A stretch of DNA of 63,757 nt, filler included. It is 8 parts of 8 records of this genome, joined end to end, with 100 filler letters (N's around TTAATTAATTAA, not from the genome) between each part and the next. Parts side by side here need not be neighbours in the genome. Positions count along the whole stretch, not along the records: positions 1 to 9,040 come from SRR7504441_2186; positions 9,141 to 23,948 come from SRR7504441_2195; positions 24,049 to 34,768 come from SRR7504441_2197; positions 34,869 to 39,666 come from SRR7504441_2198; positions 39,767 to 45,758 come from SRR7504441_2204; positions 45,859 to 49,859 come from SRR7504441_2212; positions 49,960 to 57,393 come from SRR7504441_2214; positions 57,494 to 63,757 come from SRR7504441_2216. One strand, given 5' to 3'. Positions within the stretch are counted from its first letter, which is position 1; the number at the start of each line of letters is the position of its first letter. Of this stretch, positions 1,239 to 62,952 are shown piece by piece. The notes beneath the pieces were generated by a model, which was not told the origin of the DNA, made no database searches, and worked only from the letters and a program-made list of their open reading frames with translations. Position numbers and translations under genes: made by a program.

Positions 1239-1275
1239 GTGTTCGATTGAACTCGAGCCGGAGCGGACGGGAGAA

Positions 1276-1281
1276 CAACGG
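1276..1281 (+). promoter_or_regulatory. YAACGG (Myb-like) element in the 70-bp divergent gap
   Basis: CAACGGC between the ATGs at 1238(-) and 1309(+); the motif recurs in most promoter gaps. Confidence 0.55.
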
Positions 1282-1308
1282 CCGGGTGGAACGCGGGGGG
1301 TCCAGACG

Positions 1309-4300
1309 ATGGGGTTGCGGCCGGTGCTGTTGGCGTGGCTGGTGGGCTCGGCCGCGGGCGCACGTTATAGCTATAACGTGACCTGGAGCCCGCACAGCCC
1401 GGCGGTGGCCGCCCCGGACCCGCGCGCCGGGGCCAGCCTGGTGCCGCTCGGCTCGACTCTGTTCCTATTCGGCGGTCGCGGCCCAGACGGCCGGCCGGCC
1501 TCCCAGTCGCTGCTGGCGTACAATCTGGTGTCCAAGGCCTGGCAGCTGCCCTCGCTCACCGGCGATCCGCCCGCCCCGCGGTTCGGTCAGGCGGCGGCGG
1601 CAGTGCAGGGGGCGGGCCTGCTGATCCAGGGCGGTTTCGGCAGCTCGGGCGCGCTGGCAGACCTGTGGCTTCTGGACCTGGCCAAGATGCGCTGGCGGTC
1701 GGTGGCCACAACCGGGGGGAGCCCCAGCGCGCGCGGGTACCACTCACTGACCGAGCTGGAGGGGCAGAGCTACTTTCTGTGCGGCGGGGTGAACGCCAGC
1801 GAGCCAACGGAAGGAGCCGAGGTGATGAACCAAGTGTGGCGGCTGCAGCTCAACTGCGCCACAAACGGCAGCCTGGTCTGCACCGGGGTCTGGAAGCAGC
1901 TGACGCTTGCCGACCCTCATAGCACCGCGCTCCAAAGGTACGGGCACGCTGCAGTCAACTACGGGCTGAGCAGCTCCACCGCCAAGGACCAGGTGGTTCC
2001 GTTCGTGCTGATCATGCAGGGGGCCGACCAGAGCTTCACTCCGCAGCCCGGCGTGTCTGTCCTATCGGTGAGCGGGGACACAGTCAGTGCGGTCGCTGCT
2101 ATGGAGAGCTCGTCCGGGGTTGGGCCGCTCCAGTTCCACACCGCAGTGAGCGACCAGAGCTTCATCTACGTGTACGGCGGGATGCAGCGGTCGGGCCAGC
2201 TGTCGGGCGAGCTGCTCATGTTGGAGCGGCACGGGAATATGAATGTGAGGCTGAGTGCCGATTACCCGCCCACCAACACAAGCTTTGATCCACGGGCCGG
2301 GCACTCAGCTGCGCTCGTGGGCGCGGGCGCCTTCCTTCCCGGCCCGGGCTGGTATTGCCCGGCGTGCATGCCGGATGGGGTGGTGGATCCGCATAAGCTT
2401 TATGGCAAGAAGATGAATTGCGGAGTAGTGATGCTGTTTGGCGGCCGAGGTGTCGAGCGAATGTACAACGATATGCGAGGCTACCGCAACTTCAGTCTGG
2501 ACGACCGAGTGTTTCTGTCCTTCTGGAACAGCCGGGCCTCGGCCAAGGTGTTTATGCGCCCGCTGAGTAGCCGAGGCATCAAGAACGGCTCCACTCTGCA
2601 TGTTGTGGGTGGCGAAGTCAACACCGATGGCTCTGACCCGGGCGCTTTCATTGTTCCAGCCCAGCAGGATCTGGAGCTCTCGCTAGACGCAGGCCCGGTG
2701 ATCACACCGGCAGCCCAGTCCAGTGCAGATGCTGCTGCAGACGTTGGCTCTCTGCGCGACTTTTCGATGGTGCTGCGATCTAAGCCTGAGGAAGTGATTG
2801 TGCATGGCGGTAGGACCGCGCCCCTCGAGTTGGGGGCGGCTGTAGGGGTCCAGCTCAACATCAGCCAGGAGACGTATCGGTTTGATAGCTCCGGGAAGTG
2901 GACTCGACTCGAGTGCTCAGTTGCTCGTTCGTCGATGCTCGTGCCGCGATACTCACACTGCGCCGCCATGTTTGATGCCCAAACAATGATCGTGTTTGGT
3001 GGGGCAGTAAGCGGGACTGACACCTCGGGTGGAGTGCACAATCTCTTGGGTAACCTAGCGCTGCTGAACCTTAACACGCTCGAGTGGAATTCAACACAGC
3101 AGCAGACGCCGGTGGGACAAAGCATCTTCGGGCACGCGTGTACCATGATTGACAGCCACAGGCTAGTCATCACCGGTGGGATTGGTACCGACTCTAATTA
3201 CGAGGTACCGAGCTCCAAGGATTCATGGAATTGGGTCACGACGACATACATGTACGACTTTGCCCAATCGTCTTGGACACAGCTGTCCTTCACAGGAGGT
3301 AGTTACCCAGTAAGCTTTGCATTCCACAGCGTCCTTGCTGGCCCCAATCAGACGCTCCTGGCCATCGGTGGTCTCACAAAGGACTCGAGTACACAGAAAG
3401 TCACAGCCACCAATGAGGTCTATTCAGCGGACTTTGCCCCCTGCGTGCTTGATCCATCAGACGACTATTGTGATGGGTGGTACAAACCTGCCTCCAATGG
3501 TTCATTGAACGCTGATGCCCCAGCCTTGTATCGGCATTCAATCCACCCGATGCCTTTGCATCAACAGGGTCTGTCCTTCACAAAACAGGCTCTAGTGTAT
3601 GGCGGTGTGACGATTGACGGTTCAATCTCAGATACTATTTGGGATGTCAACTTTGGCTTCGACTTTGTGGCGCCTGCACCACCAACAATCGCGCCCACCA
3701 CACTGGCCCCCACCACAGCGCCGCCATTAACAGCTGCCCCGACCTCTAATCGCGAAAAGGACACTACAGAACTAGTGATCATTGCTTCAGTGAGTATTGT
3801 TCTTGTCATTCTGGCGGTTGGTTTCTGCACCATGATCTACTATCGCAGGCATGCTGCGAAAATACAGGAGTTCCAGGATAGTCTTGCTGCTGGGATGGCA
3901 CCTGGCGCGGAGGAAGATTCGCAGCCCTGGCAAGGTCCAATCAAGGAGAACCCTGAGGATTATCGCAACTGGGAGAAGGAGTTCGGATCCAAGCTGCTCG
4001 AGGCACCGGACTTTGTCATTCGGTTCTGTGACCTGAGAATGGTTAAGCAGATTGGGCATGGGTCTTCGTGTGTGGTCCACGTGGGTTGGTGGGGCGACGC
4101 GCCTGTGGCGATAAAAAGGTTCTTTCTCCATAGGAATTACCAGCCAAGCGACTTCTATAGAGAGACTCTTGTGCATAAGCAGCTAGACCACCAGAATGTG
4201 TTGCCGCTCCTCGCCATCACCATAAATCCGCCCTGCTCAGTGACGCCGCTGATGCGTCATGGGAGCCTGTTCCACATTCTCCAATCAACTCAGGAGTTGC

Positions 4301-4974
4301 AGTACAGTCACATTCTTCAGATTGCAATCGATGCTGTGGACGGAATGCGCTATCTGCATAGCCAAGATGTAATCCATCGTGACCTGAAGACTCTCAACTT
4401 ATTAGTGGACGATTCGTGGAACGTGAAAGTGTGCGACTTCGGTATCGCGAGGTTCCAGGTGTCTGCAATGACAGCCGCGATTGGGTCCATCCAGTACATG
4501 GCCCCGGAAGTATTTGTATCCAACCACTACACAACCAAGTCGGATGTTTATTCATTCGCCATCATTCTCTGGGAGATGGCAACCCGCCAGGTTCCTTACG
4601 CGGATAGTTTCACCTCTCCATTCGCAGTGTGCTGCAACGTCCGTGAAGGCAAGCGCCTCGAAATTCCGAGTAGCTGCCGGCCAGAATACACCGAGCTGAT
4701 AGAAAAGTGCTGGTGCCACGATGCCAACCTGCGACCAGACTTTGAGGAAGTGTTCGCTGAGTTACAAGCGATCTTGAAAGAGGCAGAGAAAGAAGCCGAG
4801 CAGCTACACGGCACGCCGAGGCAGTCGCTTCGGGACTCAATGAAGGAGCTTTTGCCTTCTTCACACGAGGCCAGCTTTGCCACGCTGCCCGGATTTGAGG
4901 AACCTAGCACTAGAGACTCGTCAGTTCATGAACTGCTCCTCGACCCAGCAGCTGAAAATTCGAGCAAGTCCTAA
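1309..4974 (+). CDS. Receptor-like TKL-group protein kinase with Kelch-repeat ectodomain
   Basis: Signal peptide (MGLRPVLLAWLVGSAAG), many Kelch repeats (LFGG, IQGG, VYGG, VFGG), PTT-rich stalk, one TM, kinase motifs VAIK, HRDLKTLN, DFG, APE, SDVYSF; intronless. Confidence 0.9.
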   Translation: MGLRPVLLAWLVGSAAGARYSYNVTWSPHSPAVAAPDPRAGASLVPLGSTLFLFGGRGPDGRPASQSLLAYNLVSKAWQLPSLTGDPPAPRFGQAAAAVQGAGLLIQGGFGSSGALADLWLLDLAKMRWRSVATTGGSPSARGYHSLTELEGQSYFLCGGVNASEPTEGAEVMNQVWRLQLNCATNGSLVCTGVWKQLTLADPHSTALQRYGHAAVNYGLSSSTAKDQVVPFVLIMQGADQSFTPQPGVSVLSVSGDTVSAVAAMESSSGVGPLQFHTAVSDQSFIYVYGGMQRSGQLSGELLMLERHGNMNVRLSADYPPTNTSFDPRAGHSAALVGAGAFLPGPGWYCPACMPDGVVDPHKLYGKKMNCGVVMLFGGRGVERMYNDMRGYRNFSLDDRVFLSFWNSRASAKVFMRPLSSRGIKNGSTLHVVGGEVNTDGSDPGAFIVPAQQDLELSLDAGPVITPAAQSSADAAADVGSLRDFSMVLRSKPEEVIVHGGRTAPLELGAAVGVQLNISQETYRFDSSGKWTRLECSVARSSMLVPRYSHCAAMFDAQTMIVFGGAVSGTDTSGGVHNLLGNLALLNLNTLEWNSTQQQTPVGQSIFGHACTMIDSHRLVITGGIGTDSNYEVPSSKDSWNWVTTTYMYDFAQSSWTQLSFTGGSYPVSFAFHSVLAGPNQTLLAIGGLTKDSSTQKVTATNEVYSADFAPCVLDPSDDYCDGWYKPASNGSLNADAPALYRHSIHPMPLHQQGLSFTKQALVYGGVTIDGSISDTIWDVNFGFDFVAPAPPTIAPTTLAPTTAPPLTAAPTSNREKDTTELVIIASVSIVLVILAVGFCTMIYYRRHAAKIQEFQDSLAAGMAPGAEEDSQPWQGPIKENPEDYRNWEKEFGSKLLEAPDFVIRFCDLRMVKQIGHGSSCVVHVGWWGDAPVAIKRFFLHRNYQPSDFYRETLVHKQLDHQNVLPLLAITINPPCSVTPLMRHGSLFHILQSTQELQYSHILQIAIDAVDGMRYLHSQDVIHRDLKTLNLLVDDSWNVKVCDFGIARFQVSAMTAAIGSIQYMAPEVFVSNHYTTKSDVYSFAIILWEMATRQVPYADSFTSPFAVCCNVREGKRLEIPSSCRPEYTELIEKCWCHDANLRPDFEEVFAELQAILKEAEKEAEQLHGTPRQSLRDSMKELLPSSHEASFATLPGFEEPSTRDSSVHELLLDPAAENSSKS

Positions 4975-5144
4975 CTAATTAAAGAATTAAAGAATTCGAA
5001 ACAGCATCGAATTATTTAATAAGCGCGCGTGGCACAATCATGATCAATACTTGTAACCACAATGATGATTTTTAAAGTGAGCGAGCTACTGGGCTAAGCG
5101 TTAGCTGTTTTCCAATTGCTTACGCCTTTAGTTACGGTACTACG

Positions 5145-6311
5145 CTATGCATTCGGGTGGACACGGGCTTCCAACCGCTTGCTTGCCTCCCTTGACCTAA
5201 TGGCGAGTTGCTGCTCGAGCTCATCCACCCTTGCCTCAAGCCTGTCCCCGGACGCCTTCTCGTTCTCGTACCACTCGAGCATGAACCGCTGAGCTGTGAT
5301 CGCTTGCTTCAGCTTGGACTCAGCGGCCCCTAGCTTCTGCTCAGCTATCACGCACTTTTGCTGCAGCCGGTCGGCGTGTGCTCCTTCGACCTCCAGAATG
5401 CAGACAGCCTCGTCCTTCAACGCAGCTACCGCCTGCTGTTGACTCAGCTCCGACCTGCTTTGGATGCTAGCAGCAAGCCCGTCCAGCCTTGATACGAGAC
5501 GGGGCAGCCGCTCGCTGCTCGGGGCCAGCATCGACTCCCGCTGCTTGGCGCACCGCATCTCTAGCCGCCACTGGTGGACCGACCCGGCCAGCGCCCCCTG
5601 GGACACCCGGGCCAGCACCAGCCGCACCTGCTGCAAGCCCGCCCTGTGTGCTGTCGCAGTGGCCCGCAGCTCACTTGCTTGCAGCTCGCGTCGGGTTCGG
5701 TCCAACTGCGCCTTCTCCTCTATCAAATCGGCCTTGGCCTGCTCCGCCGCCGCTCTCTGCATGTCGCGATCGGCCTTGGCCTGCTCCGCCGCCTCGTCCG
5801 TCGCCTCCACGAGCAGGTTCATAAACGGCGCCGGCGCGCTCTGTCGCCCCTGGTCGGCGTGGGCCGCCTGCGTGTCCATAAACGGGGGCACGCCCACCCG
5901 ACCGGGCCGTATCCGCTGATAAGCATGGGCCGCCCGCTGCTGCCAGTTCCGCACTGCGCCGTATAGCCGGCCGTGCAGCCGCCGCTTGAAAGCCCGGGCG
6001 AGCTGCCCGATCGCCCCCCGCTGCGTCCGCTGGCTCAGATCTTGCAAGTCCCGCTCCAATTCGGACCGCTCCAGCTTAGACGCTCGCAGCTCGGCCCCGC
6101 TCTGCTCGGCCTGGCGCTGCTCCGCTCGCAGCTGCTCACGATCCGCCAGGCGGCCGTCCTCAGCCATGCCGAACCGCCACTGGCGGACAGCCACGCCTGC
6201 CTGGCCAGTCAGGGATCTGTTCATCAGCAGCTTGAGTTGGGTCATGGCCGCGTGCTGGGTGATGTCCTTGACGAACTGTCCCACGTCGCACTCCGCCTCA
6301 TCCGCTGGCAT
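5145..6311 (-). CDS. Coiled-coil protein with three Sfi1-like (..G...AV..WR) repeats
   Basis: Long ORF with coiled-coil composition; repeats QLKLLMNRSLTGQAGVAVRQWR, QLARAFKRRLHGRLYGAVRNWQ, QVRLVLARVSQGALAGSVHQWR; start placed at the first ATG (6311). Confidence 0.55.
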   Translation of the reverse strand: MPADEAECDVGQFVKDITQHAAMTQLKLLMNRSLTGQAGVAVRQWRFGMAEDGRLADREQLRAEQRQAEQSGAELRASKLERSELERDLQDLSQRTQRGAIGQLARAFKRRLHGRLYGAVRNWQQRAAHAYQRIRPGRVGVPPFMDTQAAHADQGRQSAPAPFMNLLVEATDEAAEQAKADRDMQRAAAEQAKADLIEEKAQLDRTRRELQASELRATATAHRAGLQQVRLVLARVSQGALAGSVHQWRLEMRCAKQRESMLAPSSERLPRLVSRLDGLAASIQSRSELSQQQAVAALKDEAVCILEVEGAHADRLQQKCVIAEQKLGAAESKLKQAITAQRFMLEWYENEKASGDRLEARVDELEQQLAIRSREASKRLEARVHPNA

Positions 6312-6334
6312 TGTCTCAACAGCAACCCGTCCAG

Positions 6335-6340
6335 CAACGG
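6335..6340 (+). promoter_or_regulatory. YAACGG element in divergent gap
   Basis: CAACGGC between the ATGs at 6311(-) and 6473(+). Confidence 0.45.
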
Positions 6341-6472
6341 CAAAGCGTATATCGAGAACGCCCAGCAATCGGGGTCCCTTGTCTGAGCCGTCCTCCGCTC
6401 TCGGCTTTGATCCCGGATCGGTCGGCCGGCTCTCCCCGGCGCTTGAGTTGCTCACCCTAGCACAGAGCGGTG

Positions 6473-6997
6473 ATGGACGCCGCCACGGTGTTCGCCGAGC
6501 TAGATACGGACGGGAACGGCGAGCTGACGCTCCAGGAGCTCTCCTGCCGGCTGTCGGACATGGGCTTCGATGAGGACGATATCACCCAGCTGTTCCAGTC
6601 GCTGGACGCCAATAACGACGGCGTGATCACCCTGGAGGAGTTCGAGGCCGGGTACGAAGAATACTGCGATTACTGCGATGACGACCTGCCGATGTGCGTC
6701 GAGGGCCCCTCCTCCGAGATCAAGGGCCGGGCCAACCCGTACGCCCACGAGATGCACGGGAGCGCCCCGGGTGCGCTGCTCGGCCAGCCCAGGGCTAAAC
6801 TGGTGCAGATGCGGAGGAGAAGAAGGAGGAGAAGAAGGAGAGCAGCAGCTCAAGCAGCTCCAGTGCAGCCCCCCTAGAGCCGCCCACCGGTTAGGGGTTG
6901 GTGTACAGGTTCATCTGATGATGATTCGGATGATGACTTCCCGATGTGCGTAGAAGGTCCATCCAGTCACATTAAGGGCCGAGCTAATCCTAATTAG
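6473..6997 (+). CDS. Two-EF-hand Ca2+-binding protein with duplicated C-terminal motif (2 introns)
   Basis: EF loops DTDGNGELTLQE and DANNDGVITLEE; GT-AG introns near 6771-6808 and 6863-6908; motif DDD(L/F)PMCVEGPSS(E/H)IKGRANP occurs twice; TAG at 6995-6997. Confidence 0.8.
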
Positions 6998-7161
6998 CTC
7001 CCAATTAGCAGCAACAGTGCGCCGCCATAGCAAGACACGAGAGTACGTATGAGTGTCGGAGTGTCTACAACTACATACATTTAATGAACGCTTGAATAAC
7101 GCTTATAGCTCAGCATTGGATATAAACTTAGTTCCTAGGAGATGTCATGAATATGCCATGA

Positions 7162-7663
7162 TCAGCCGCTGTGTGGATTTTGTAAAGCCCTCCATAAGTC
7201 AAACACTTGTTGCTCAACTTGTTGCATTCCGAGCTTCAGTTCGAGTAATGCAGTGTGTTGGACGGTAACTTCCCCGCCATACTGCTTCAAGGAGGCCTCT
7301 AATACGTCCAATTTGGCAAACCCATGGTCAAACTTTTCGCATCGAAGCTGTTGCGCTGTCACGTCGGCTTCTAGTCCGTCCACCCGCCCTTTCATGGGAT
7401 CGAGCCGGTGCCTACAGGATCGAGCCTGGAGAATTGAGCCGCCGTGCCGCCCATGGCCTCCCATTCAGTGAGACCGATCGTCCCACCTGTGGCAACATCA
7501 ACCGCAGTCATCCACTTTGTGAAAAGGCATTCCATCATGCCCTCCACAGCTTCACTCAGTTCGACACAGCGCGTCTCCAGTGTACCCAGGCGCGCCTCAT
7601 CTGCCTCAGACAGGCTGCAGTCGGTGGTTTCGGTGGGCCTTTGGGCATAGCTCGCGGCCCCAT
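7162..7663 (-). pseudogene. 5'-truncated, frameshifted EF-hand-like/coiled-coil gene remnant
   Basis: Degenerate EF-hands (DVATGGTIGLTEW, RLDPVGTGSI) followed by a coiled coil in another frame; one missing C in the C-run near 7396 would join the frames; begins at a TTGCAG acceptor with no evident upstream exon. Confidence 0.45.
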
Positions 7664-7684
7664 CTGCAACACAGCTCCCATCAG

Positions 7685-8300
7685 CAACTTCAGGCAGAGG
7701 CATCTCTATGGCACTCTGCCACAAAGCTTCAGCAATTTGTCGAATCTCGTTTATCTGTGAGTGCTCACTTGCACTAGAGGGGCTCACTTCCCTGTGCAGC
7801 GATCTACACGGCAACGTCTTCACAGGAAGTCTGCCACACGGACTGGCCAACAGCTCGTCTCTACTGTGGATGTGAGTTGGATGCGTTCGTGCCGTGGTCT
7901 GACGTCCATTGATTGTCACAGAGACCTAACATACAACAAGCTGGAAGGCTGGGACTGGCTTGAGGGCCAGCCGTCACAACCGTGGCAGCAGTGGGGGCAG
8001 CTGACCCAAATCGATGGCAGAGGTAATTTCCAGCAGCCAAACACCGTGTACCACAAGCTGGAGTCATACGTCTATGGTCAGGGTCGCCGTGATTCTCTTG
8101 CAGCAAACCCTCCAGTACATGGCTCCGAAAATCCAGGTGGAGCACTCCAGGTTCCTTTTAAGCTATGGGTCGGGATCTCAGGTGTTGGAGGATTTCCGTC
8201 TACGCGATACGATCATGTTTCGTATGACCTGCACCAGCCTACTGGAGAAGGCACTTATGAATTCCCTAGCTTGAACGATGGATATCCAAGAAATGTTTAA
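7685..8300 (+). pseudogene. 5'-truncated LRR gene with one 24-aa LRR per 72-nt exon
   Basis: Exons 7685-7756, 7800-7871 and 7922-8300 splice (GTGAG..CAG) to NFRQRHLYGTLPQSFSNLSNLVYLDLHGNVFTGSLPHGLANSSSLLWIDLTYNKLEG; no start exon or promoter is visible. Confidence 0.65.
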
Positions 8301-8416
8301 TCAAAGTAATTAGCTCATAGGGACGAGCCATATGAGCTGAATAATCAAAGTTCAATTAATAACTAGTTCTAAGTTCTTGCATCGATTGGCTTTTTAGAGA
8401 GCTCTCCTTCTGTTCG

Positions 8417-9040
8417 TCACTCGCTGGCTCCTGGCCCAGCAGTCTTTTGCCGCTTCCTTTCCTCGCGCGCAGCACTCTCTGCCAGCTTTTCCGCCTCGGC
8501 GCGTGCCTGCTGGGCCTCGTTCTCGAGGGCCTTGTCGGATTTCTTCCTTGCGCGCTCATTCAGAAAGCTCCAGTCATGCTCAGGCAGCAGTGTCTGCAGG
8601 CCCTGGGCCACCTCGCCCTCAAAGTGGTACACCAGCGACCAGAAGCAGCGGGGCGATATCTGGGCCATCTTGAACGGCTTGAGGTGCTCCCTGGCCGCCT
8701 CGCCGCCCTCATCGAGCACCATCTGGTACACCGCCCTCAGTGCCTCCTTCTCCACCAACTCCACGTCCTTGTCGCACTTCCAGGCCCGCTCCCCCTTGAA
8801 CTTGACGTTGTACCGGCCGGAGCTCCCGTCGCCCAGTCGGAACGCCTGGACTGGCTCGAACTCGTACTGGCGGCCCATCGCGGCCCGGTAACGGAAGTTG
8901 GCCAACGTCTCGCTTTGCACGTGCGAGAGCGCGAACTTGAGTGCGTCACGCAGGTACGAGACTCCGAGGTCCTCGTCCTGGCCCTTCCGCCCGCCGGCCG
9001 CCACCATCTGCTCGGCGATCCCTTCCTCCGACTTGAAGAG
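8417..9040 (-). CDS. Hypothetical protein, 3' part (5' end lost at contig edge)
   Basis: GC3-rich ORF open up to the gap, with globular-looking sequence (LKPFKMAQISPRCFWSLV, LLPEHDWSFL). Confidence 0.7.
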   Translation of the reverse strand, partial: LFKSEEGIAEQMVAAGGRKGQDEDLGVSYLRDALKFALSHVQSETLANFRYRAAMGRQYEFEPVQAFRLGDGSSGRYNVKFKGERAWKCDKDVELVEKEALRAVYQMVLDEGGEAAREHLKPFKMAQISPRCFWSLVYHFEGEVAQGLQTLLPEHDWSFLNERARKKSDKALENEAQQARAEAEKLAESAAREERKRQKTAGPGASE

Positions 9041-9140
9041 NNNNNNNNNNNNNNNNNNNNNNNNNNNNNNNNNNNNNNNNNNNNTTAATTAATTAANNNN
9101 NNNNNNNNNNNNNNNNNNNNNNNNNNNNNNNNNNNNNNNN
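9041..9140. other. Artificial contig linker
   Basis: N-run with central TTAATTAATTAA (stops in all six frames). Confidence 0.98.
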
Positions 9141-11933: not shown

Positions 11934-12069
11934 TACATACAAGTAGATTCCTTAGTGATTCCTTATATTAGTGATTCCTGGTTTTTAAATATCACTACCG
12001 TAACATTGGTAGACTCTGGAGTGGAGAGCCCTTCCGCGGCCGCAGCCGAGTTTCTTCCAAGGACTTCTT

Positions 12070-12075
12070 CCGTTG
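12070..12075 (-). promoter_or_regulatory. YAACGG element upstream of ARP6
   Basis: TTCCGTTG about 50 bp upstream of the ATG at 12124. Confidence 0.5.
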
Positions 12076-12123
12076 CCGCTCGGCTCGGGGCCGGGTTGTG
12101 TCTCCTAGCTGCAGTCTCGGCGG

Positions 12124-13728: not shown

Positions 13729-13854
13729 GATAGAAGGGCCTGGCGCACGCATCTTGGGCGGCTGATTCCACGTACAGATATGCATACCAAGATGGCGGCT
13801 ACCTATTTAAAATAAAGCTGTTTTACCTAGTGATTATAGCGATTGAATAGTGAT

Positions 13855-14139
13855 CTAGCCGGCCGACTCAGTGTCAACACACACCTCCACCACCGGATCG
13901 GCGCCGCGCCGGCGGAGTTTTTTGGTCAGCCGGGCGGCCGAGATGGTGCTGGTCGGCTGGTGGCTCCCCCGCTGGCCCAGGCCTAGGTTGGCCGCGGCCA
14001 GCTCGGCCCCGAATACCAGCAACCCGACTGCCAGGCCCCCAAGCACCATCAACGCCACCTTGTAAGCGCCGGCCGCCAGCGCCACCACCACCGCCGCCAT
14101 CGTCCAGAACACGATCAGCGTGATCCAGCACTCCACCAT
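13855..14139 (-). CDS. Small hydrophobic membrane protein
   Basis: 94-aa ORF with two hydrophobic segments; fits the divergent-pair pattern with the DEK-like gene. Confidence 0.5.
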   Translation of the reverse strand: MVECWITLIVFWTMAAVVVALAAGAYKVALMVLGGLAVGLLVFGAELAAANLGLGQRGSHQPTSTISAARLTKKLRRRGADPVVEVCVDTESAG

Positions 14140-14272
14140 CGGTGCGCCAAAGCCGGGTGGCTACAGTACCAGCCGCGGCAGCGGGCGTGGCAGCAGTCCG
14201 CAGGACCAGCAGCTGCTGTTCAAAAATCTCGCTGGCGGGGCAAGTTCGAAATCAGCAGGAAGCCGAGAAAGC

Positions 14273-16516: not shown

Positions 16517-16581
16517 GTGCGCCACTGCTCTCAAGGCTCGACGGCTGAGCGTGGTGACAGTCGGTGGTGGCCGAGCTGCTT

Positions 16582-16587
16582 CCGTTA
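16582..16587 (-). promoter_or_regulatory. YAACGG element in the 74-bp divergent gap
   Basis: TTCCGTTA between the ATGs at 16516(-) and 16591(+). Confidence 0.5.
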
Positions 16588-16590
16588 GAC

Positions 16591-18011: not shown

Positions 18012-18049
18012 TGATCCCCGCTCGGGCTCGGGCGACGATGCTACGATGT

Positions 18050-18055
18050 CCGTTG
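18050..18055 (-). promoter_or_regulatory. YAACGG element in the 87-bp divergent gap
   Basis: GTCCGTTG between the ATGs at 18011(-) and 18099(+). Confidence 0.55.
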
Positions 18056-23789: not shown

Positions 23790-23834
23790 GGAGCCCCTGG
23801 TACCGCCTACTGGTGCTCCCAAGTTGGGATCCGT

Positions 23835-23840
23835 CCGTTG
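23835..23840 (-). promoter_or_regulatory. YAACGG element in divergent gap
   Basis: GTCCGTTG between the ATGs at 23789(-) and 23897(+). Confidence 0.5.
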
Positions 23841-25512: not shown

Positions 25513-25593
25513 GGCAGACCGATGCGCTCGTCGAAGCGATCGTCGATGATATCATCGTCTGATATTTCCATTTCCCTCTCTCCGAGAATAATG

Positions 25594-25606
25594 CCGTTGG
25601 CAACTG
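25594..25606. promoter_or_regulatory. Paired Myb-like sites (CCGTTG g CAACTG) in divergent gap
   Basis: GCCGTTGGCAACTG between the ATGs at 25512(-) and 25647(+). Confidence 0.5.
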
Positions 25607-33594: not shown

Positions 33595-33600
33595 TAACGG
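33595..33600 (+). promoter_or_regulatory. YAACGG element in divergent gap
   Basis: TAACGGA between the ATGs at 33534(-) and 33676(+). Confidence 0.5.
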
Positions 33601-33675
33601 AACCGGCAATTATCGGCCCAAAGAGCCGGGTACTCCGCGTCTACACCCTGCGGGGCGTCCGCGCCAAATCACCGA

Positions 33676-37235: not shown

Positions 37236-37314
37236 CTAGACGACGCGGACCTTAGGTTGGCCCTGCGCCGCAGCGGCAGAGGGTGCGTGGTGTCTCAAAG
37301 CTGGCGAGGCTCTT

Positions 37315-37320
37315 CCGTTA
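37315..37320 (-). promoter_or_regulatory. YAACGG element upstream of the PKD2-like gene
   Basis: TTCCGTTA about 80 bp upstream of the ATG at 37235. Confidence 0.5.
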
Positions 37321-38419: not shown

Positions 38420-38531
38420 CGAAGACCCCAGTGCCGGTGCACGTTCGCACAGGCCGTCCTTTCTTTTTATTCGTGCTGCAGCTGCAGAGCGACCGAAACA
38501 GCACCCCGCGGCGCGGTGTCTCAGGCCGGGG

Positions 38532-45684: not shown

Positions 45685-45690
45685 CAACGG
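45685..45690 (+). promoter_or_regulatory. YAACGG element upstream of the LRR gene
   Basis: CAACGGC about 110 bp upstream of the ATG at 45576. Confidence 0.45.
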
Positions 45691-45758
45691 CAGCCATCAA
45701 AGCCCCTGTCCGCCTCTCTGCTGCAGACGCCCACATGCTGCTGGCCTCGACCCACAGT

Positions 45759-45858: not shown

Positions 45859-45984
45859 CCCGCTTTGCGGCCCCAACCCCTTCGCCCCTTGGCAGCCCAA
45901 GCACTGCGCGCGGGCGGCTCCTCAATTTTTCCTGGATTGGCAGCAGGCGAGGACTCGTCAGTTGTCTTGAGAGGATTTGGCGCC

Positions 45985-47668: not shown

Positions 47669-47739
47669 CGCAAGTCAACAAAAATCCTGGGGCTGTCGAC
47701 CGGCGGCGTGCAGGGGTCGCGGTGCTTGTGTGGTTAGCC

Positions 47740-48223
47740 ATGTTCGCCAAAGGCACGTTCAAGCGGCACACGTGCGGGCGCCGGGTCATCTAGCTGACGG
47801 GCTGCGCAGGTCGCACACGGAGGCGGCGCTGGCCAAGGAGGCCGAAATGCTCCGGATCGACGGGATGATGCCAAACCGGAGTATGCTCAATCGGTGGAGC
47901 CGGGCCAACTTCGAACAGCTGTGCAGGCGACCGACCAGCGCGGCGCGGTGCTCACCCCCGGGGCGCAGTGACCCGAACAACAAGAAGACACTCATCACGC
48001 TGTTCAAGACCATGATCGTAATGGGGGTGGCCCCGCTGCTCTGTTTCTTCCTGGTGTACCAGGGCACCCAGATTGTGTTCGGAGGTGCCTGCCCACCTGA
48101 GCGAGCTGACTGCTGGCAGCGGGAATCGATCGGGCGCTGATGGTGGCGGGGGTGGCTGCGGTGATCACAGTCAACGCGGTCTCACTCGGGTATGCGTATT
48201 ACGCCGGCTGGCTCGAGGAATAA
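47740..48223 (+). CDS. VMA21: VMA21-like V-ATPase assembly factor (3 introns)
   Basis: Spliced TM1 LFKTMIVMGVAPLLCFFLVY and TM2 AGVAAVITVNAVSLGYAYYA..EE-stop. Confidence 0.7.
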
Positions 48224-51520: not shown

Positions 51521-51582
51521 TTTTATACAAAAGTACATACGGTAGTTTTTATTCGTATACGTACGGTAGTTTTTACTCGTAT
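51506..51582. repeat. Two short direct repeats in an AT/GTAC-rich 3' spacer
   Basis: TACAAAAGTACATA x2 and TACGGTAGTTTTTAYTCGTA x2. Confidence 0.75.
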
Positions 51583-51677
51583 GAATTCGTATAGTATTCG
51601 TATACATGTACGTCTGTACGCGATCTTTAGTCTATCACATGATTGTAAAGGCCGACAAAAATTTGTAAGCCGTTTGC

Positions 51678-52892: not shown

Positions 52893-53011
52893 GTGCACTC
52901 AACTGTGCGTAGAGAAAGCCGCTCCCAGTCCCCGTGTCCCTCATCTTTCCGGATTCCGGACAGCCCAAAGTAACGACTTTTATAACCGACTTTCTCGGTG
53001 GCTCCAAGCCC

Positions 53012-55579: not shown

Positions 55580-55701
55580 ATGATTGTGCCGTACATGATT
55601 GTATTGTGGGGCTTATGGAGTGAGTACAGTACTCATCCCGGTAAGTAACCGTGGAGTGCAATTTCTGATTATAAAATTAATAGATGCATCTAAATACGAA
55701 G

Positions 55702-56758
55702 TTACAACAAAGGCGAAGATGACCAAGAAGCGCTGGGCCGGCACGCGGACTGAGACGACTCGTACGATAACCCATATGACCCTGTCGGTGTGCTGCCAGC
55801 ATAGTTCCACCAGCATTCTCGGGCCCAGTCTCGTCGCCCTGGCGTGTGACCGGCAGCTCTCTTCTTCAGCTCTCTCTCGAGGGTTCGCTGCCAATCATTT
55901 GGGCCAGTGCTGATGGGAATCGGCCTCGGTGCTGAGCGCGGCTTCGGGCTGCTCCTTGCAGCCCAGCCTGCGCCTGTGGCCCAGTGGCCTTGTGAACCTT
56001 TGGCACTCTGCTGGAGGCAATGCTCGGCAGCGTGAGCTCGGACCGCAGCCGCCGATAGGTTGGCCTTTGCGCTCACGGCCTGGCTCCATGCCTGGTGCCG
56101 GCACCAGCTGACCGGGCGGGGCTCGTACGAGACCCTGGCCTGCCGGCGCTCATCCTTGCGGCGCTGCAGGAACTCTGCGGCTAGCTGCTCGGGAGACACT
56201 GGCCCGCTCTCTTTGCCCTCGGTCTCCTCTGAGATAAACCGCGCCAGCTCCTGGTCCAGGAGTCACGTTACGGGGATACGGGGGCGCGACCTCGCTTGCC
56301 AGGAACTGCTCGAAAGGCACCCGGAGCTTCTCCATCCCAGCGGCGAGCAGCGCCACCACCGCCCCATTCCGCACCTGCCGCCCTCAGGTCAGTTTGGCTC
56401 GGGCTCCGAGTCGGCCTTGGGGTCGTAGCTGGGCATCGGGAAGGCCTCGGTGCCCAGCCCGAAATGCTCGGGCGCGTCGGGCAGCAGGTATTTGTGCATC
56501 AGCCCGTGGGCGATCTCGGCTTCCTTGGGCCCATTCTGGTGCCGGACGCATCGCGCCGCGTCAAAGCAGAAGTTGAGCAGGCTCTGCATGGGCGGCGGGC
56601 CCTCCTGCGGCTCCCTGCTCGCAACAAACTGCTCCCCAGTCAGAGTGCGGTCGGGCACAGAGGCTCCGGACCCGACAGAAGTGGGCGAAGGCGAGTGCGT
56701 TGCCAAGGAGATCGGCGAGGCTCATTGGGCACTCCTTCCGCCGTGGGAGGTGCGACAT
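55702..56758 (-). CDS. RGS-domain protein (several introns; 3' end approximate)
   Basis: Spliced SLADLLGNALAFAHFCRFV..LLNFCFDA..AHGLMHKYLLPDAPEHFGL..VVALL...FEQFLASE matches the RGS helix pattern. Confidence 0.6.
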
Positions 56759-56821
56759 GCGACAGGGTGAGCGCTGAGTGTCCCTCCACTCAGGCACTGA
56801 AGCCCAACCGCACAGTTCTTC

Positions 56822-56827
56822 CAACGG
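56822..56827 (+). promoter_or_regulatory. YAACGG element upstream of the RGS gene
   Basis: CAACGGC 64 bp upstream of the ATG at 56758. Confidence 0.45.
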
Positions 56828-57393
56828 CACGCGCAGCTCGGTTTGTGGTCGAGCTGTACTCTTCGCGGGCCACCGGTCACTTCATGCCTAGCTAGCTTTC
56901 GTGTGAGCTATTGATAATGGCAATTTCCGCGGCGGCCATCACCCTCCTCTAGCTGGTTTCTGTTTGAGTTGCATTGGGACCCCCTCTGGGCCTACTCTGG
57001 GCCGGCGCGGACCCTGCGATTCGAGAGGGTCTACTCATTTGGCCATTTGCACCGTACAAGTCGTTAATTGATTAATCAATGACATGAATATGTCGTTGCG
57101 TGTAGTATGTATACAAGACGCCCACGGGTACGCGTCGTCGAAACTAAGTACAGATAAATTACATGTGTAATCATGAGTACACGTTTGGCAAACCCTTCAA
57201 TGCGTCAGGTTGTCGCGGATGAGCTGGATAAGCTGAAGACGTCAGAAAACAACACGGTCGCCGATGGCTCAGATGGCCCCGATGGCTCACATCCCCAAAA
57301 CAACATGGATCGCATTTCACCGGCCCGGGGGTTAGTTGAACTCCTTCTGCACTTCCTCGTGAACCCTGTGCAAAGAATGGCTGATCACTTCCG

Positions 57394-57493
57394 NNNNNNN
57401 NNNNNNNNNNNNNNNNNNNNNNNNNNNNNNNNNNNNNTTAATTAATTAANNNNNNNNNNNNNNNNNNNNNNNNNNNNNNNNNNNNNNNNNNNN
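57394..57493. other. Artificial contig linker
   Basis: N-run with TTAATTAATTAA. Confidence 0.98.
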
Positions 57494-58527
57494 GTGTCAG
57501 GTACAGCCACAGCCGCCACTGCTCCTTCCGGGTCAATGTAGCCAGCAACATGAGTATCCAGCGGCACGCAGAGCTCATGCTCAGAGAAGCCTGATTCCGG
57601 CTCCGGAGCCCCGCGCCCTGTGTGTGCTTGTATCCCCCAGATCTCTGGGGATGCCACCAGCGTGCACTCGAACTGTGCCTGGGCCGCCAAAGCTTGCCAA
57701 AGTGGCTCGCTTGCACAAACTTGCTGCATCGCCTGGCAGCTTTGAGCAAACAGGCAGACCAAGCGCACCGAGCCGGATTTGGCCAGAATCAGCTGCATCA
57801 GGTTGTGGCTCAGGTTGAGCCAGGGCTTGAACTCGCGCACTAGCCGCAGCCACGCGACGACATTGACCCGGCTGCCACTCGAGACTGGGTCGGCCCCGTG
57901 CATGTGCTGACCTTGATGTACCAGCCCGCTGCCCACTCGGTGCGGCACCGGCACAAACATCGGCTCGGGCTGCTGGTCGTCGAGCTGAGGCTCGGGCTGC
58001 CCATTGACCCAACGGACGTTGGACTGGTAAGGCTCGGTGGGCATAAGCTTATCTTGAAGCGCCAGCCTACTTGCGGTATCTGCCTCCGGGTGGTCCGCTT
58101 GGTACTGATCGACCAGGTTGTACACCTCGTTCACTGCCACCGGGTCGCTGGCCAGCAGCAGATCGCCCCCAGCGAACTCCTTCCCGACGCACACGTTCAA
58201 CGTAAGGCAGCTGTCGTCCAAATGCGGCTGGTGCCTCTCACCGGTTGGGCTGGTGTACTCGATCACGAACGCGTGCGTCATCTCCACCCGGGCCTGCGGC
58301 TTGCGTGGGCCCACCAGCGCCTCCTGCACCTGGTCCAGCGCTCGGTCGAGGAGCCCGGGGCACAGTTCGTCCAGAGGCAGCCCGCGCTCCGGAGAGAGCC
58401 GGGGGCAGACGGCCGGATCGGCGAGCTTGAGCGCGGCGAGCTTGGCGCAGACCGACTGGCACTGATCGGGCGAGAGCAGCTCGGCCCGCCAGACCCCCGG
58501 CGGCTCGAGCACCCAGCCGCCCGGCAT
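57494..58527 (-). CDS. 2OG-Fe(II) dioxygenase (OGFOD2/PLOD-like) fused to an F-box; 3' end missing
   Basis: AFVIEY..PHLDDSCLTLNVCVGKEFAGGDL..HQGQHMHGA.PV.SGSRVNVVAW, then WLNLSHNLMQLIL..LFAQSCQAMQQVCASEPLW. Confidence 0.8.
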
Positions 58528-58571
58528 GTGTTCGTTCCGGAGCTGCCTCCACGCCACCTGGGCGGGAAGTT

Positions 58572-58577
58572 CAACGG
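58572..58577 (+). promoter_or_regulatory. YAACGG element in the 54-bp divergent gap
   Basis: CAACGGC between the ATGs at 58527(-) and 58582(+). Confidence 0.55.
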
Positions 58578-58581
58578 CAAG

Positions 58582-59921
58582 ATGGCAGCTAACACAGCTC
58601 GGTGGGTGGTAGCAGCCGGCACCTCGGTGGCACCCGCGCTGGGGAAGGGCTCAGCCCGGGGGGCGCAGGCGGCGGCACTCGGGCTAGCGGCCTACGTCCT
58701 GTGGCGCCGAGCCAGTCGCCGGTTGCCGTTCCTGGACAACCCAGCTCCGGCCGACTCGGGCAAGCCGATGCGGCTGGCGGCCAAGCACCAGGCGCCCGGC
58801 CGGGCCACGGGTGAGGGAAGGCCCGGGGCAGCTGTCGCACGACACCTGGCGGCTGGTGTTTGGGCTAGACCAGCCAGATCAGCCGCTCGGGCTGCCGGTC
58901 GGCGGGCATCTGATGCTCTTCTGTCCGCCTGCGGGCCCGCCGGCCAAGCCGGGCGAATGGAACGGCCGACCGGACTCGGAGGTGCCCCGGGCCGGGGGAG
59001 TGGTGCCAGCCCCGGGCAGGCGGATGCGGAGGTTATTCAGCGGAAGTACACGCCGACCTCACCGGTGACCGCTCTGGGGGAGGTAGAGCTGGTCGTCAAG
59101 GCGCGCGCGGGTGGTGGGCACTGGCGGACTCAGGGGGCAGCTGTACATGCCTGATGGCGACCGGTGGGCGGATGGTGGCAAGATGTCCCGATTTTTGTCC
59201 CAAATGCGCGTGGACGACAGGATTATGGTTAAAGGCCCGCTGGGAGGGATCCGGTACAATGGACAAGGCGAGTGCGCAGGAGGCCAGCGGTGACGGGCAG
59301 GGCAGGCAGCTTTACAGTGCACGGCAAGCCGGTCCAGTGCTCTCAGATCGGGATGATCGCAGGCGGGACTGGTACGTGCAGCGCCATTGCTAGTGCCGAC
59401 TCTGGCCAGGGATCACACCGATGCTTCAGATAATGCAAGCTATCGCAGCTGACTCGGCCGACAGCACTCGAGTCCGATTGCTTTTTGGGAACCAGGCGCG
59501 TGCAGGGCTGCCTGGGCTGCTGAGCGGGGGCTGCAGACTCCGGATGACATCCTGCTGCAGCATGAGCTCGAGCAGCTCCAGCTGGCCCCCGGGGGACAAT
59601 TCGGCGTCTGGTTCACCGTCGACCGACCGTCCGCGGCCTGGCCACCTGCTGGACAGCGCGACCAACCGGCCGAGCTCTCGACCGGTGGCAATGCGCGCCG
59701 AGTGTTTGTTGAGGCGACGGGGCAGGGTTTGTAGACCCAGCAAAGATCAGTGCGGCCCTGCCGCCGCCAGGTGAGCCCGTGGGGCGGGGCGGGCGGGAGT
59801 GCGTGGGGCAGAGGTGGACGGGGAGCCGAGCGTGGTGCTCATGTGCGGGCCGCCGCCGATGGTCAAGTATTGCAGGCAGCACCTCAAGGCTCTCGGCCAT
59901 CAAAAGATCTTTTGTTTCTGA
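58582..59921 (+). CDS. CYB5R: NADH-cytochrome b5 reductase, 9 introns
   Basis: LSHDT..F.L, LGLPVGGH, RKYTP, GGKMS, KGPLG, GMIAGGTGITPMLQ, LLFGNQTPDDILL, MCGPPPM; four GC-AG introns. Confidence 0.93.
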
Positions 59922-60122
59922 AGCGTAGACTTGATGATATAGCTCGCATCACCATATAGTAGAGTATAGACTAGACGTCGATCTTCTAATGATTTATTGA
60001 ATTCGTGTGTCTTCTAAAACGAGTGATCGAATCACCCCTCTCCACTTGCCGAGCGTCCGTTACGATTTTGTTTAATATTGTCCAGCCAACAATATCAAGA
60101 CCGTGATCGATTCGTCGATTGA

Positions 60123-62832
60123 TCAAAAGTCCTCAGCAATGATGGACACAACGAGCGAGGACCACCCGTTGAACGGCCTGGCTCGCTGCCCGGAGCCATC
60201 CAGGTCCGAGTACTGCTCCCAGAGGTAGTTTGTCTCCCGCCACACCTTGTGCATGTTTCGCACCACGTTCGTCCGGAGTTCATCATAGATCGCCTTGGCC
60301 TTCTCCTGCTGAGGCCCCTCAACCGTCGCATAGTGGTGTAACCCATAAAGCGCCAGATACTGCAGATTGATCCAAATCGCCCCCCGCCAGTACGGCGCGT
60401 CGCCTGGCGCGTTCTCCCTGTGGTAGTAAGCAGACTTCTTGGAGAGCGAGCGCAGGCCCCAGTCCGTCCAGAGCTGCCCCGGGTCCCTGATTGATGCTAG
60501 CACGGCCTCGAGCTGCGGCGCGTCCGTAGGGAGCAGCCGGAGCATCACTGGGAACAGCGAGACGTACCCGACGTGCTCCACGAACCGGTTGGCGAGCTTG
60601 GATGCAACAAACACTTCTTTTTGGAGCATGCCGCCTTTGCCATCTCCGAGCGGCCACTTGAAAAGAGGGTGGCTGGCAGGACATGCAGCGCGAGGGTCCT
60701 GATCCTGGCGGACGGTGGACTGGGCGCCTTCGCCCTTGGCGTTGTGGCACTGGATCACCACCTGCTGCTCGAACCGGCCTTTGTTCGAGTGCCGGCCAAA
60801 GTCGTTAAACGCATTGGCCCGAGCATTCCAGTGCAGCGGCACCACCAGCCCGGACAACTCAGCGGCGCGAGCACTGTACTTCTCGGCTAGAGCCTGCCAC
60901 AGCTCAACCCCATCAGGGCCGGGCGCACCGCATCGCCGAGGTGGGCCGCCAGCTGTGCAAGCACAGCGTTGGCTTTGGCGATCCAGCAGAGCAAGTCGAC
61001 ATGCCGCTCATCGCTTGTCGGATCCGACGCCCGTGGGTAGTCATCGAGCCCCGACGAGAGCGTCATTGCGTTCAGCCTGTTGTCGCCCTTGTCCCGTCCG
61101 CGCCAGAGGTACGCCTCAGCTGCGCTGCCACTCAGCGGCCGGCAGCAGGGCAGTGCACCGTGTGAGCCGCGTTGGGTCCTGTCAAACCACTCAAGCCAGC
61201 GCTCGAGCACAGGCAAAGCCGCCCGGAGCAACGGCTGAACCGACGGCGCCACCGGCGGCCGGAGCAGTCGTTCTACGACCAGCATGAGCGTGGGCGGGTT
61301 GGCCACCGAAGGGCTCTGGGCCACAAACTCGCGAGGGACGCGCCGGATCGCTTCGACGCCCAGGATCTGCTCGCTGCCCCACCAGGTAAGAGCGCGCCAT
61401 GTGGACGGTGAGGCGCGGACCGGGGGATCCAACCATCGGAGCGGGAGAGCTCTAGCCAGTGTCCGAGCACATCGCCCGAGATGGCTGGTTCCCACCAACT
61501 GACCAGCAGCTGGTGGAATCCCTCGTCCCACAGGAAGCCTGAACCCCCGACCATCCGGCCCACACGCCAGGCCCGGCCCACCGCGAGGGAAGAACGGCCG
61601 GCAGGGCACAGCGCTGAACAGCGGGACTACCGGTCCGATCACCGGGCTGGCCCTGCCTGGATGCTTCTCTAGCGTGCCGCCGTAGAAGTATCCGTGCCCG
61701 CCGAGCAACGCTGAAAGCGCATACCTGGCCGGCCAGCTCGCCTGCAGAGCTCGCACTGGCGCACCGGGCGAACGGCAGCTGATCGTGCTCGACCTTGCCC
61801 GAGAGCTTTGCGGCCAAACGGCTATCAAACTGTGCAGCCGCCTCACTGAGCTGCGTAGAATACTTCTCCGGGGACACGAGTTGCCCGCCAGAGGCGCCCG
61901 GGCTGTACCCAAAGTGCAGATCTGGGGTGCGGTCCAGAGCATAGTGAACCATCACGCAGCTGGCCCGCTGCTGGCCCGACCCGCCGCCTCCACGCCTGCC
62001 GTACCGTCACAGCCTGTCATGGACGCTAGTGCACGTACCTCGCCACCACTCGCTCGGCGTGCCGTTCCAAGGTCTGGAGCAGCACGCTCCGGTTGGCGTG
62101 TACCGTCCCGCCGGCCGGGGCTAGAATCTCGAACGGCCCAACCGGAGACTCGACGGCCGACAGGCTGATTCCTGCACCTGAAGAGCTCGGCGGCTCAAAG
62201 CTGTGCCGGGGTGGAGAGAGCTCCTCATCGGGCGTGTGCGCCTCCCGATCGTCGATCATGGCCGCGTACAGCACGAGCGACACCGCCGGCATGGGGTGGG
62301 TGCCGTTGAGCGCCGAACCGGACACGCGGGCCTGCCAGATCGGCCGGCCGTCCGAGTCGGCCCGCTTGACGAACGAGGTGTGCAGGACCAGATTGGCTGC
62401 CGGGTCTTTGAGTGTCTGCTCGCCGAAGCTGAACCCGTCGTGCCGCTCCCACCCGTACTGGCTCAACCCGTCGGCCTGGTCGCACTGGTGCCGCACCACG
62501 GTACGGCCGTCGCGCTCGAAACCCCAGAGCAGCCCGACAACCACAGACTCAGGGCCCTGCCGCGGACGGAGCCCGAAGTAGACGTTGGGCCGGTACGAGC
62601 CCCAGAGCATCGAGGCGTTGTGCTCGGCCGACAGATGCGCGAGCAACTGGCGGGAGGCCGGGCAGCTGGCCGGTTCGTCGGTCGGCTGCGCCCGGACCAG
62701 CCAGCCGCCGGCCAGCCCGGCGAGCAGCGCCAGCCCGGCCCAGACCGCCCGACGGGACAGCCCCGACCGCTCGGTCGGTCCGCTCGCCGCCGACTCCTTG
62801 GGCTGCCTCTTGGCCTTGGACTTGCCTCCCAT
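60123..62832 (-). CDS. MOGS: Mannosyl-oligosaccharide glucosidase I (GH63), several introns
   Basis: Type-[96 protein letters not shown]. Confidence 0.95.
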
Positions 62833-62860
62833 ACTGATGATCACCCGGCCGTGGCGCCTT

Positions 62861-62866
62861 CCGTTA
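62861..62866 (-). promoter_or_regulatory. YAACGG element in divergent gap
   Basis: TTCCGTTA between the ATGs at 62832(-) and 62953(+). Confidence 0.5.
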
Positions 62867-62952
62867 CTTTGGCCTCCGCTGGCTGCTCCGCACGCAGTGG
62901 GTCCAGGGGTGTGTCGGCGGCGGGCACCTACCGCTAATCCAGGCGCGGGGAG

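Follow-up and report, generated by a model that had tools for sequence, protein, structure and literature searches.

Among free-living protists, promoter architecture has been worked out in very few cases, and among uncultured marine lineages in hardly any, and the question raised by the DNA studied here is how genes packed with so little sequence between them are still provided with promoters. The window, by which we mean the whole 63,757-nt stretch that was analyzed, consists of eight short contigs (4-15 kb) placed end to end with N spacers between them, and it is eukaryotic, with genes split by introns. A sequence-only reading had proposed that a Myb-type word, YAACGG followed by A or C, is a near-universal element of tiny bidirectional promoters in this window. 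We find that a longer form of the word, YAACGG[A/C]A, is very probably a genuine cis-element of intergenic DNA on the 5' side of genes, and it probably constitutes a main promoter signal of this organism.

The analysis compares sequences upstream of genes (5' gaps) with the remainder of the window. From open reading frames (ORFs), Pfam anchors and RNA-supported introns, 17 such gaps were drawn with a total length of 2,123 bp, and they match the 18 intervals of the sequence-only reading only approximately. They are very short (54-190 bp) and GC-rich (0.52-0.69; for example 1239-1308, 18012-18098 and 62833-62953), whereas 3' or convergent gaps are AT-rich (GC 0.38-0.51; for example 4975-5144, 20639-21068 and 46759-46945). 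This sharp difference between the two kinds of gap could itself serve to orient genes in this lineage.

All 13 YAACGG copies that had been singled out before are present where they had been placed and on the strands implied, all are among the 35 YAACGGM matches of the window, and A or C comes directly after each of the 13. Over the whole window there are 45 copies of YAACGG (about 0.71 per kb), and YAACGGM is not above chance there (35 matches versus 26.9 +/- 5.6 in shuffles, with at least 35 in nine of 100 shuffles), so that only the placement of the copies is at issue. This placement is strongly skewed. The 5' gaps hold 12 copies, one apiece in 12 of the 17, against 33 in the roughly 61 kb outside, which is a 10.3-fold higher density in the gaps (Poisson p = 4.5e-9). 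Shuffles of the gaps that preserve dinucleotides contain 1.99 +/- 1.37 sites, and 12 motif-bearing gaps were reached in none of 5000. When all words are ranked blindly by their abundance in gaps relative to the rest of the window, AACGG comes first of 512 5-mers, CAACGG first of 2080 6-mers and CAACGGC first of 7982 7-mers. A CpG-island effect was considered as the cause (CpG observed/expected 1.04 in gaps versus 0.88 elsewhere) and set aside, because the shuffles that keep the gap dinucleotides yield 2 sites, not 12.

Other intergenic sequence behaves differently. Nine 3' or convergent intervals hold four sites in 2,429 bp, three of which form a cluster at 26-112; when the interval 1-443 is left aside, only one site is found in 1,986 bp of these gaps, and there is no enrichment. 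Twelve doubtful intervals upstream of a first ATG, mostly internal-exon boundaries, hold a single site (23835). Since these are nearly motif-free, the fraction of genuine 5' gaps that carry the motif is given as about 70% on our list and not more exactly. The word is thus a majority element, and the description "near-universal" goes too far for 12 of 17 gaps, a share that falls further if the doubtful intervals are included.

An automated control that is independent of the gap list shows the same bias. Its 46 greedily chosen, non-overlapping ORFs of at least 120 amino acids include many internal exons and many ORFs on the wrong strand. The 60 bp before the first ATG contain seven sites in 2,656 bp (2.64 per kb), the 60 bp after stop codons one site in 2,756 bp (0.36 per kb), and the ORFs themselves 25 sites in 43,767 bp (0.57 per kb). 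The upstream windows differ from the ORF rate with p = 0.001 and from the windows after stops with p = 0.03. Within the window, the concentration noted in the sequence-only reading stands, with the corrections given here.

The element is 8 bp in length and more specific than the six or seven letters first noted. At the 12 gap sites, the base after GG is A in six and C in six, and the base that follows is A in 10. The extension [A/C]A is present at 10 of the 12 gap sites versus seven of the 33 other sites (Fisher p = 2.7e-4), and the complete word YAACGGMA occurs 10 times in gaps versus seven times elsewhere, a 38-fold difference in density. A purine at the first position is excluded, with RAACGG found zero times in gaps versus 38 times elsewhere. 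None of the variants YAACGA, YAACGC, YAACGT, YAACAG, YAACCG and YAACTG is enriched in gaps. The extended c-Myb form of the recognition sequence, YAACGGHH, fits all 12 gap sites.

Two groups of sites that the sequence-only reading had brought in as further support fall away on these letters. CAACTG, present at 45959 on the minus strand and at 52900, had been offered as marking two additional intervals. YAACTG occurs three times in gaps versus 1.37 expected, and without enrichment the two intervals are not to be counted and CAACTG is dismissed as an alternative form of the word. For the three copies at 26, 58 and 112, the sequence-only reading had suggested that the promoter of a gene beyond the end of the window could lie there. 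They are followed by GG, TG and CT and so misfit the extended consensus, lie downstream of a stop codon at a GC content of 0.50, and are left uncounted. Positions 1-120 thus carry three YAACGG copies within about 90 bp, 3' of a gene ending at 444, and those at 26 and 58 form an inverted pair flanking an AT-rich spacer.

Half of the 12 gap sites lie between pairs of divergent ATG codons that are 54-161 bp apart. In the 70-bp gap 1239-1308, between a minus-strand gene (ATG 1238) and a kelch-kinase gene (ATG 1309), the site is CAACGGCC on the plus strand (1276..1283). The 161-bp gap 6312-6472, between a minus-strand gene (ATG 6311) and an EF-hand gene (ATG 6473), has CAACGGCA on the plus strand (6335..6342). 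The site of the 87-bp gap 18012-18098, CAACGGAC on the minus strand (18048..18055), is 43 nt upstream of the transketolase ATG at 18099. The gap 25513-25647 is bounded on one side by a minus-strand gene (ATG 25512) and on the other by what is predicted to be the first exon of a long plus-strand gene (ATG 25648); it contains CAACGGCA on the minus strand (25592..25599), and a CAACTG in inverted orientation abuts this site at 25601. The 141-bp gap 33535-33675 separates a TPR gene (ATG 33534) from a plus-strand gene (ATG 33676) and has TAACGGAA on the plus strand (33595..33602). In the shortest gap, the 54 bp from 58528 to 58581, CAACGGCA on the plus strand (58572..58579) is placed so that its 6-mer core begins 44 nt from a minus-strand ATG (58527) and ends 4 nt before the ATG (58582) of a gene resembling FAD/NAD reductases. 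The adjacent copies in the fourth of these gaps, a minus-strand CAACGG and a plus-strand CAACTG at 25594-25606, amount to inverted Myb-type half sites one base apart and are the sole such pair in the gaps.

Three further gaps are divergent on weaker gene models. These are 62833-62953, with TAACGGAA on the minus strand (62859..62866) in sense orientation 28 nt upstream of a GH63 glucosidase ATG (62832); 56759-56918, with CAACGGCA on the plus strand (56822..56829) between weak flanking gene models; and 16517-16590, with TAACGGAA on the minus strand (16580..16587), also in sense orientation, 65 nt upstream of a DUF3228 ATG (16516). Two gaps are tandem. In 11934-12123, CAACGGAA on the minus strand (12068..12075) is 48 nt upstream of, and antisense to, the gene for an actin-related protein (Arp; ATG 12124), and in 37236-37411, TAACGGAA on the minus strand (37313..37320) lies upstream of a minus-strand gene with several exons, in sense orientation and 79 nt from its ATG (37235). 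The last gap, 45673-45758, ends with its contig and has CAACGGCA on the plus strand (45685..45692), antisense to the minus-strand LRR gene whose ATG (45672) is 12 nt away. Outside the gap set, CAACGGAC on the minus strand (23833..23840) occupies an ambiguous interval that is upstream of an ATG at 23789 yet within an ORF open to the contig end at 23948. The intervals holding the sites at 45685, 45959 and 23835 are contig ends rather than complete gaps. The view that these promoters are bidirectional consequently holds in part: approximately seven to nine of the 12 gaps with the motif can plausibly be taken as divergent, and the two tandem gaps and the contig-cut one are not so assigned.

The 12 sites are spread over seven of the eight contigs and divide evenly between strands (six plus, six minus), in agreement with the orientation independence that had been proposed. 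The genes next to them are unrelated, as had also been proposed, and include those for transketolase, GH63 glucosidase, Arp, DUF3228, kelch-kinase, LRR, EF-hand and FAD/NAD reductase proteins. Nor is there a consistent TATA box, with no run of six or more A/T in eight of the 12 motif gaps. Because the element is usable in either orientation and at least two sites (12070 at Arp and 45685 at the LRR gene) are antisense to the sole gene that can be assigned to them, a role at the DNA level is favored over one at the RNA level.

Taken together, these features suggest that the word, present once in the majority of TATA-less, GC-rich short gaps preceding genes, most likely serves at the DNA level as the site of a single sequence-specific protein, and that this protein most probably belongs to the Myb/SANT family. 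The bound protein could then mark or open the promoter, in the manner of a general regulatory factor, a pioneer factor or a proximal activator. In the divergent gaps of 54-161 bp, which are so short that the site necessarily lies between the start sites of both genes, a single functional site would inevitably be common to the pair. The presence of one site per motif gap is compatible with this. As a general core promoter that drives both genes of each pair, which is what the sequence-only reading had inferred, the site would be no more than a candidate. A minority of gaps without the word would use an A/T run instead. To the reading as a whole, in which a promoter-associated element of 5' gaps acts as the site of a Myb-family protein, we give a probability of about 0.5.

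Several observations weigh against this reading. The gap list is small (17 gaps) and was drawn by eye once the motif positions were known, and the automated control gives a smaller effect, of approximately 5- to 7-fold. Five of the 17 gaps lack the word. Conversely, seven full 8-mers lie outside gaps, mostly within ORFs, and one 6-mer is in a 3' gap (60057), so that the word by itself is insufficient. The T form of the Myb consensus is not used. The distance from the core to the flanking ATG ranges from 3 to 132 nt with no favored value, and this variability does not indicate a core element at a fixed position. The sites at 58572 and 45685, which have an ATG as close as 4 and 12 nt, may well be inside a 5' untranslated region (UTR), and some copies of the word probably do lie within 5' UTRs. 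Scans of 20, 150 and 103 ORF translations contain no match to a Myb domain, a result of little weight for 63 kb. RNA-run contigs, from an oligo-dT metatranscriptome aligned to 9141-23948, cover none of the gaps, and a metagenome search for loci related to the RNA-dependent RNA polymerase (RdRP) gene of the window found one 2.5-kb contig that is filled by the gene and has no flanks.

The same promoter role might be filled by a protein that is not Myb, with another or a lineage-specific DNA-binding domain that prefers AACGG. We consider this unlikely, but it would account for the use of only the G form of the consensus and for a 3' flank, [A/C]A(G), unlike the YYA flank of the plant MSA element. 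Four sites moreover read AACGGAAG and contain a GGAA core, which is presumably of the kind used by other factor families. Because GGAA appears in only five of the 12 sites, it cannot be the common determinant, and an ETS-like reading of AACGGAAG is dismissed in that capacity; YAACGG itself is common to 12 of 12 sites and the fit to YAACGGHH is equally complete. The Myb assignment is put forward as the most probable one on the letters of the sites. A rather different proposal is that the word is transcribed, either as an initiator-like sequence at or just downstream of the transcript start or as a 5' UTR element acting at the RNA level, for instance in translation control. For 10 of the 12 sites in gaps, as well as for the one at 23835, a gene start is found 4-132 nt downstream in the sense direction, and the two sites at 4 and 12 nt from an ATG would suit such a role. 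The count says little, however, because in divergent gaps there is a gene downstream whichever way the word points. With the site at 12070 antisense to the only gene that it could serve, the site at 45685 antisense to the LRR gene 12 nt away and no fixed spacing to the ATG, we regard a transcribed function as quite improbable.

A tightly bound protein could alternatively form a boundary, halting read-through or antisense transcription or phasing nucleosomes in a dense genome. The single copy between packed genes fits this, including the two tandem gaps in which the upstream gene ends 91-136 nt from the site, and two papers report roadblock and nucleosome-phasing roles for the general regulatory factors of yeast (PMC5052057, PMC8163841). 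Read-through control would matter equally in convergent and 3' gaps, though, and the near lack of the site there (one in 1,986 bp) leaves the roadblock model with little probability. The AACGG core shared with the MSA element raises the further idea of a cell-cycle regulon under a 3R-Myb protein, or of some other condition-specific regulon, in place of a general element. Such a regulon is very improbable for a word that is carried by about 70% of gaps, lacks the MSA flanks, and adjoins housekeeping-type genes with no relation to one another (transketolase, GH63, Arp, DUF3228, kinases, reductase). There is, finally, the concern that a common GC-rich word was noticed afterwards in intervals picked to contain it. 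A whole-window count at chance level, two gap lists drawn by eye and 63 kb of sequence all invite this explanation. Against it are the complete failure of the shuffles to reach the observed count, the top rank of the word among all k-mers at k = 5, 6 and 7, the same bias under an ORF rule that makes no use of the gap list, the absence of RAACGG from gaps, and a difference between gap sites and other sites in flanking letters that played no part in selection. Within the window, chance or ascertainment is largely refuted and retains only a minimal probability.

If a Myb-family protein does bind the element, its site would be of a familiar kind. The standard Myb recognition element (MRE) is given as [CT]AAC[GT]G in passages of one study (PMC10887745). 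In comparison with the MREs of animal c-Myb and of R2R3 and 3R Myb proteins, the core found here is identical in its G form, being YAACGG in all 12 gap sites, and differs in that the present gaps show no enrichment of YAACTG, the T form. Known MREs mark particular regulons; in Entamoeba invadens, according to the same passages, they are associated with 21% of genes and spread over 500 bp (PMC10887745), whereas here a single copy is present in most gaps, no more than 132 nt from an ATG. Pioneer-factor activity is described for c-Myb in part of another report (PMC6022509), and by analogy a pioneer or general-regulatory role may be envisaged for the present element.

The plant MSA element, as defined in passages of one paper, is (T/C)C(T/C)AACGG(T/C)(T/C)A, is bound by 3R-Myb proteins, works in both orientations and is specific to G2/M (PMC5405339). 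The AACGG core and the use of either orientation are held in common with that description. The full consensus is not, with a pyrimidine at +1 in six of the 12 sites and at +2 in only two (A in 10 of 12), and a restriction to G2/M is not matched by the flanking genes, which are unrelated as judged by their annotation.

The nearest described system is Motif 3 of Trichomonas vaginalis. Portions of a review describe it as a core promoter motif that resembles a Myb recognition sequence and has the Myb-like protein M3BP as its binding protein; most genes of that organism use the initiator, and Motif 3 serves part of the approximately 25% of genes that lack an initiator (PMC4693282). In both cases a protist whose genes have very short upstream regions places a short Myb-like word near their starts, a likeness that is drawn from this description of the motif and not letter by letter. 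The two differ in that Motif 3 is a minority element and the present word a majority one, and in that for Trichomonas both the binding protein and the position of the motif relative to the transcript start are known, whereas the binding protein proposed here is a putative one.

General regulatory factors of yeast such as Reb1 offer an analogy in function rather than membership in a common class. Reb1 is a Myb-like protein. As these factors are described, one tightly specific site per nucleosome-depleted promoter serves many unrelated genes, and effects on divergent transcription and on transcriptional roadblocks are documented; the Reb1 recognition sequence differs from the present word, and the chromatin data are those of yeast.

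The five 5' gaps without the word contain a different signal. Each of them has one A/T run of at least six, as opposed to four of the 12 motif gaps (Fisher p = 0.03), and two of those four are the tandem gaps, which also hold a 3' end. In the gap 14140..14272 the run AAAAAT at 14222 is inside CAAAAATC at 14221, and in the divergent gap 47669..47846 AAAAAT at 47680 is inside CAAAAATC at 47679. The gap 38420..38531, between weak gene models, has TTTTTATT at 38464. A contig start upstream of ATG 45985 (45859..45984) has AATTTTT at 45924 along with the CAACTG at 45959. The divergent gap 52893..53011, which separates the RdRP gene (ATG 53012) from a minus-strand gene (ATG 52892), has TTTTATAA at 52978 in addition to the CAACTG at 52900. 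Across the window CAAAAATC occurs four times (14221-14228, 47679-47686, 24075-24082 and 59190-59197) versus 1.26 expected, and two of the copies are in motif-less gaps. These counts are suggestive only, and the A/T run may represent a second, TATA-like promoter class.

A more far-reaching and distinctly tentative proposal is that a two-class promoter code runs most genes of this uncultured marine protist, with a Myb-like protein as the general promoter-recognition factor. The majority class would be defined by the single 8-bp YAACGG[A/C]A in either orientation, with no other specific signal in these GC-rich gaps (54-190 bp), and its site would be common to both genes of divergent pairs. The minority class would carry a short A/T run (for example CAAAAATC or TTTTATAA) in its place.

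No earlier report of such a motif was found among the papers listed by searches of a limited collection, those listed by one search being plant promoter scans throughout, and the words promoter and motif are absent from a preprint on marine protist single-cell genomes. If one short word of Myb type does mark most gene starts, it would show how a genome with intergenic gaps of 50-160 bp still specifies promoters. The case of the parasite Trichomonas, in which a Myb-like promoter element is a minority motif, would be extended to a free-living, GC-rich protist with such an element as its majority motif. One protein family would also be nominated as the candidate general factor. In practice the word would then be a direct handle for annotating gene starts and strands in fragmentary single-cell and metagenome assemblies of the lineage.

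The positions of the gaps depend on the gene starts, which were set with as little reference to the motif as possible; those of the transketolase, EF-hand, Arp, DUF3228 and GH63 genes are anchored by Pfam and homologue alignment. The transketolase ATG at 18099 aligns with the starts of five relatives, and the best matches among its protein relatives are at 81-85%. The EF-hand domain begins at residue 7 of the ORF starting at 6473, position 4 of the actin profile corresponds to residue 10 of the Arp ORF starting at 12124, and position 2 of the DUF3228 profile lies seven residues beyond the ATG at 16516. The GH63 gene was taken to start at 62832 and the FAD/NAD reductase gene at 58582. The remaining starts were taken from long, high-scoring ORFs. 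A custom exon-chaining gene finder over-merged genes or missed high-GC ones, such as the RNA-supported Arp gene, and was used only as a hint.

Contigs from the RNA run support five tiny GT..CAG introns of 38-53 nt in the Arp and transketolase genes (12637-12674, 12742-12784, 12905-12957, 18425-18466 and 18535-18575). The first transketolase exon (18099-18422) contains an extra in-frame segment of 13 residues (approximately 39 nt) compared with all relatives in the alignment, and because the nearby introns are of that size, this insert is read as probably a further tiny intron. Because such introns are about as long as the shortest promoter gaps, calling genes by eye is risky.

The eight contigs occupy positions 1-9040, 9141-23948, 24049-34768, 34869-39666, 39767-45758, 45859-49859, 49960-57393 and 57494-63757. 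Each of the seven spacers between them (9041-9140, 23949-24048, 34769-34868, 39667-39766, 45759-45858, 49860-49959 and 57394-57493) is made up of a 12-letter linker with stops in all frames, flanked by 44 N on each side. As a result of this concatenation, intervals that touch a spacer are contig ends and not intergenic gaps, and features on either side of a spacer are not true neighbors. GC content ranges from 49 to 67% in 2-kb steps. Pfam and ORF scans identify genes for a GH63 glucosidase (in several exons), transketolase, Arp, a kelch-kinase, an LRR protein, RdRP, an arginine-kinase-like protein and EF-hand proteins. Scans of the window for tRNAs and Rfam families returned no match, so no non-coding RNA gene of these kinds accounts for any gap.

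Two sequencing runs, one a metagenome and the other the oligo-dT metatranscriptome, matched approximately 5-6% of the words sampled from a 10-kb stretch in each case, and contigs of both that align to 9141-23948 are mostly 90-95% alike and cover none of the gaps. These runs contain a strain about 92% alike. Over a GAG/GAA-rich coding stretch of acidic repeats at 14081-14574, especially 14455-14507, the summed contig depth reaches 58.8 and 111 in the two runs, as compared to about 0-4 in most other bins. This excess is presumably due to low-complexity cross-matching from other organisms. The two ends of the fourth contig (34869-34898 and 39637-39666) are perfect 30-nt inverted repeats of each other, which looks like an assembly or amplification artefact and not biology.

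Two of the genes are of interest in their own right. The RdRP gene (53012-55132) encodes an RNA-dependent RNA polymerase of the RNA interference type (Pfam RdRP); it has only five relatives in a large protein collection, the best of which is a single-cell protein assigned to Picozoa in EukProt (52-57% identity). The arginine-kinase-like gene at 21069-23789 has both the N and C domains of ATP-gua_Ptrans, and TPR repeats occur downstream in the same ORF as well as in upstream exons, a combination that is an unusual fusion.

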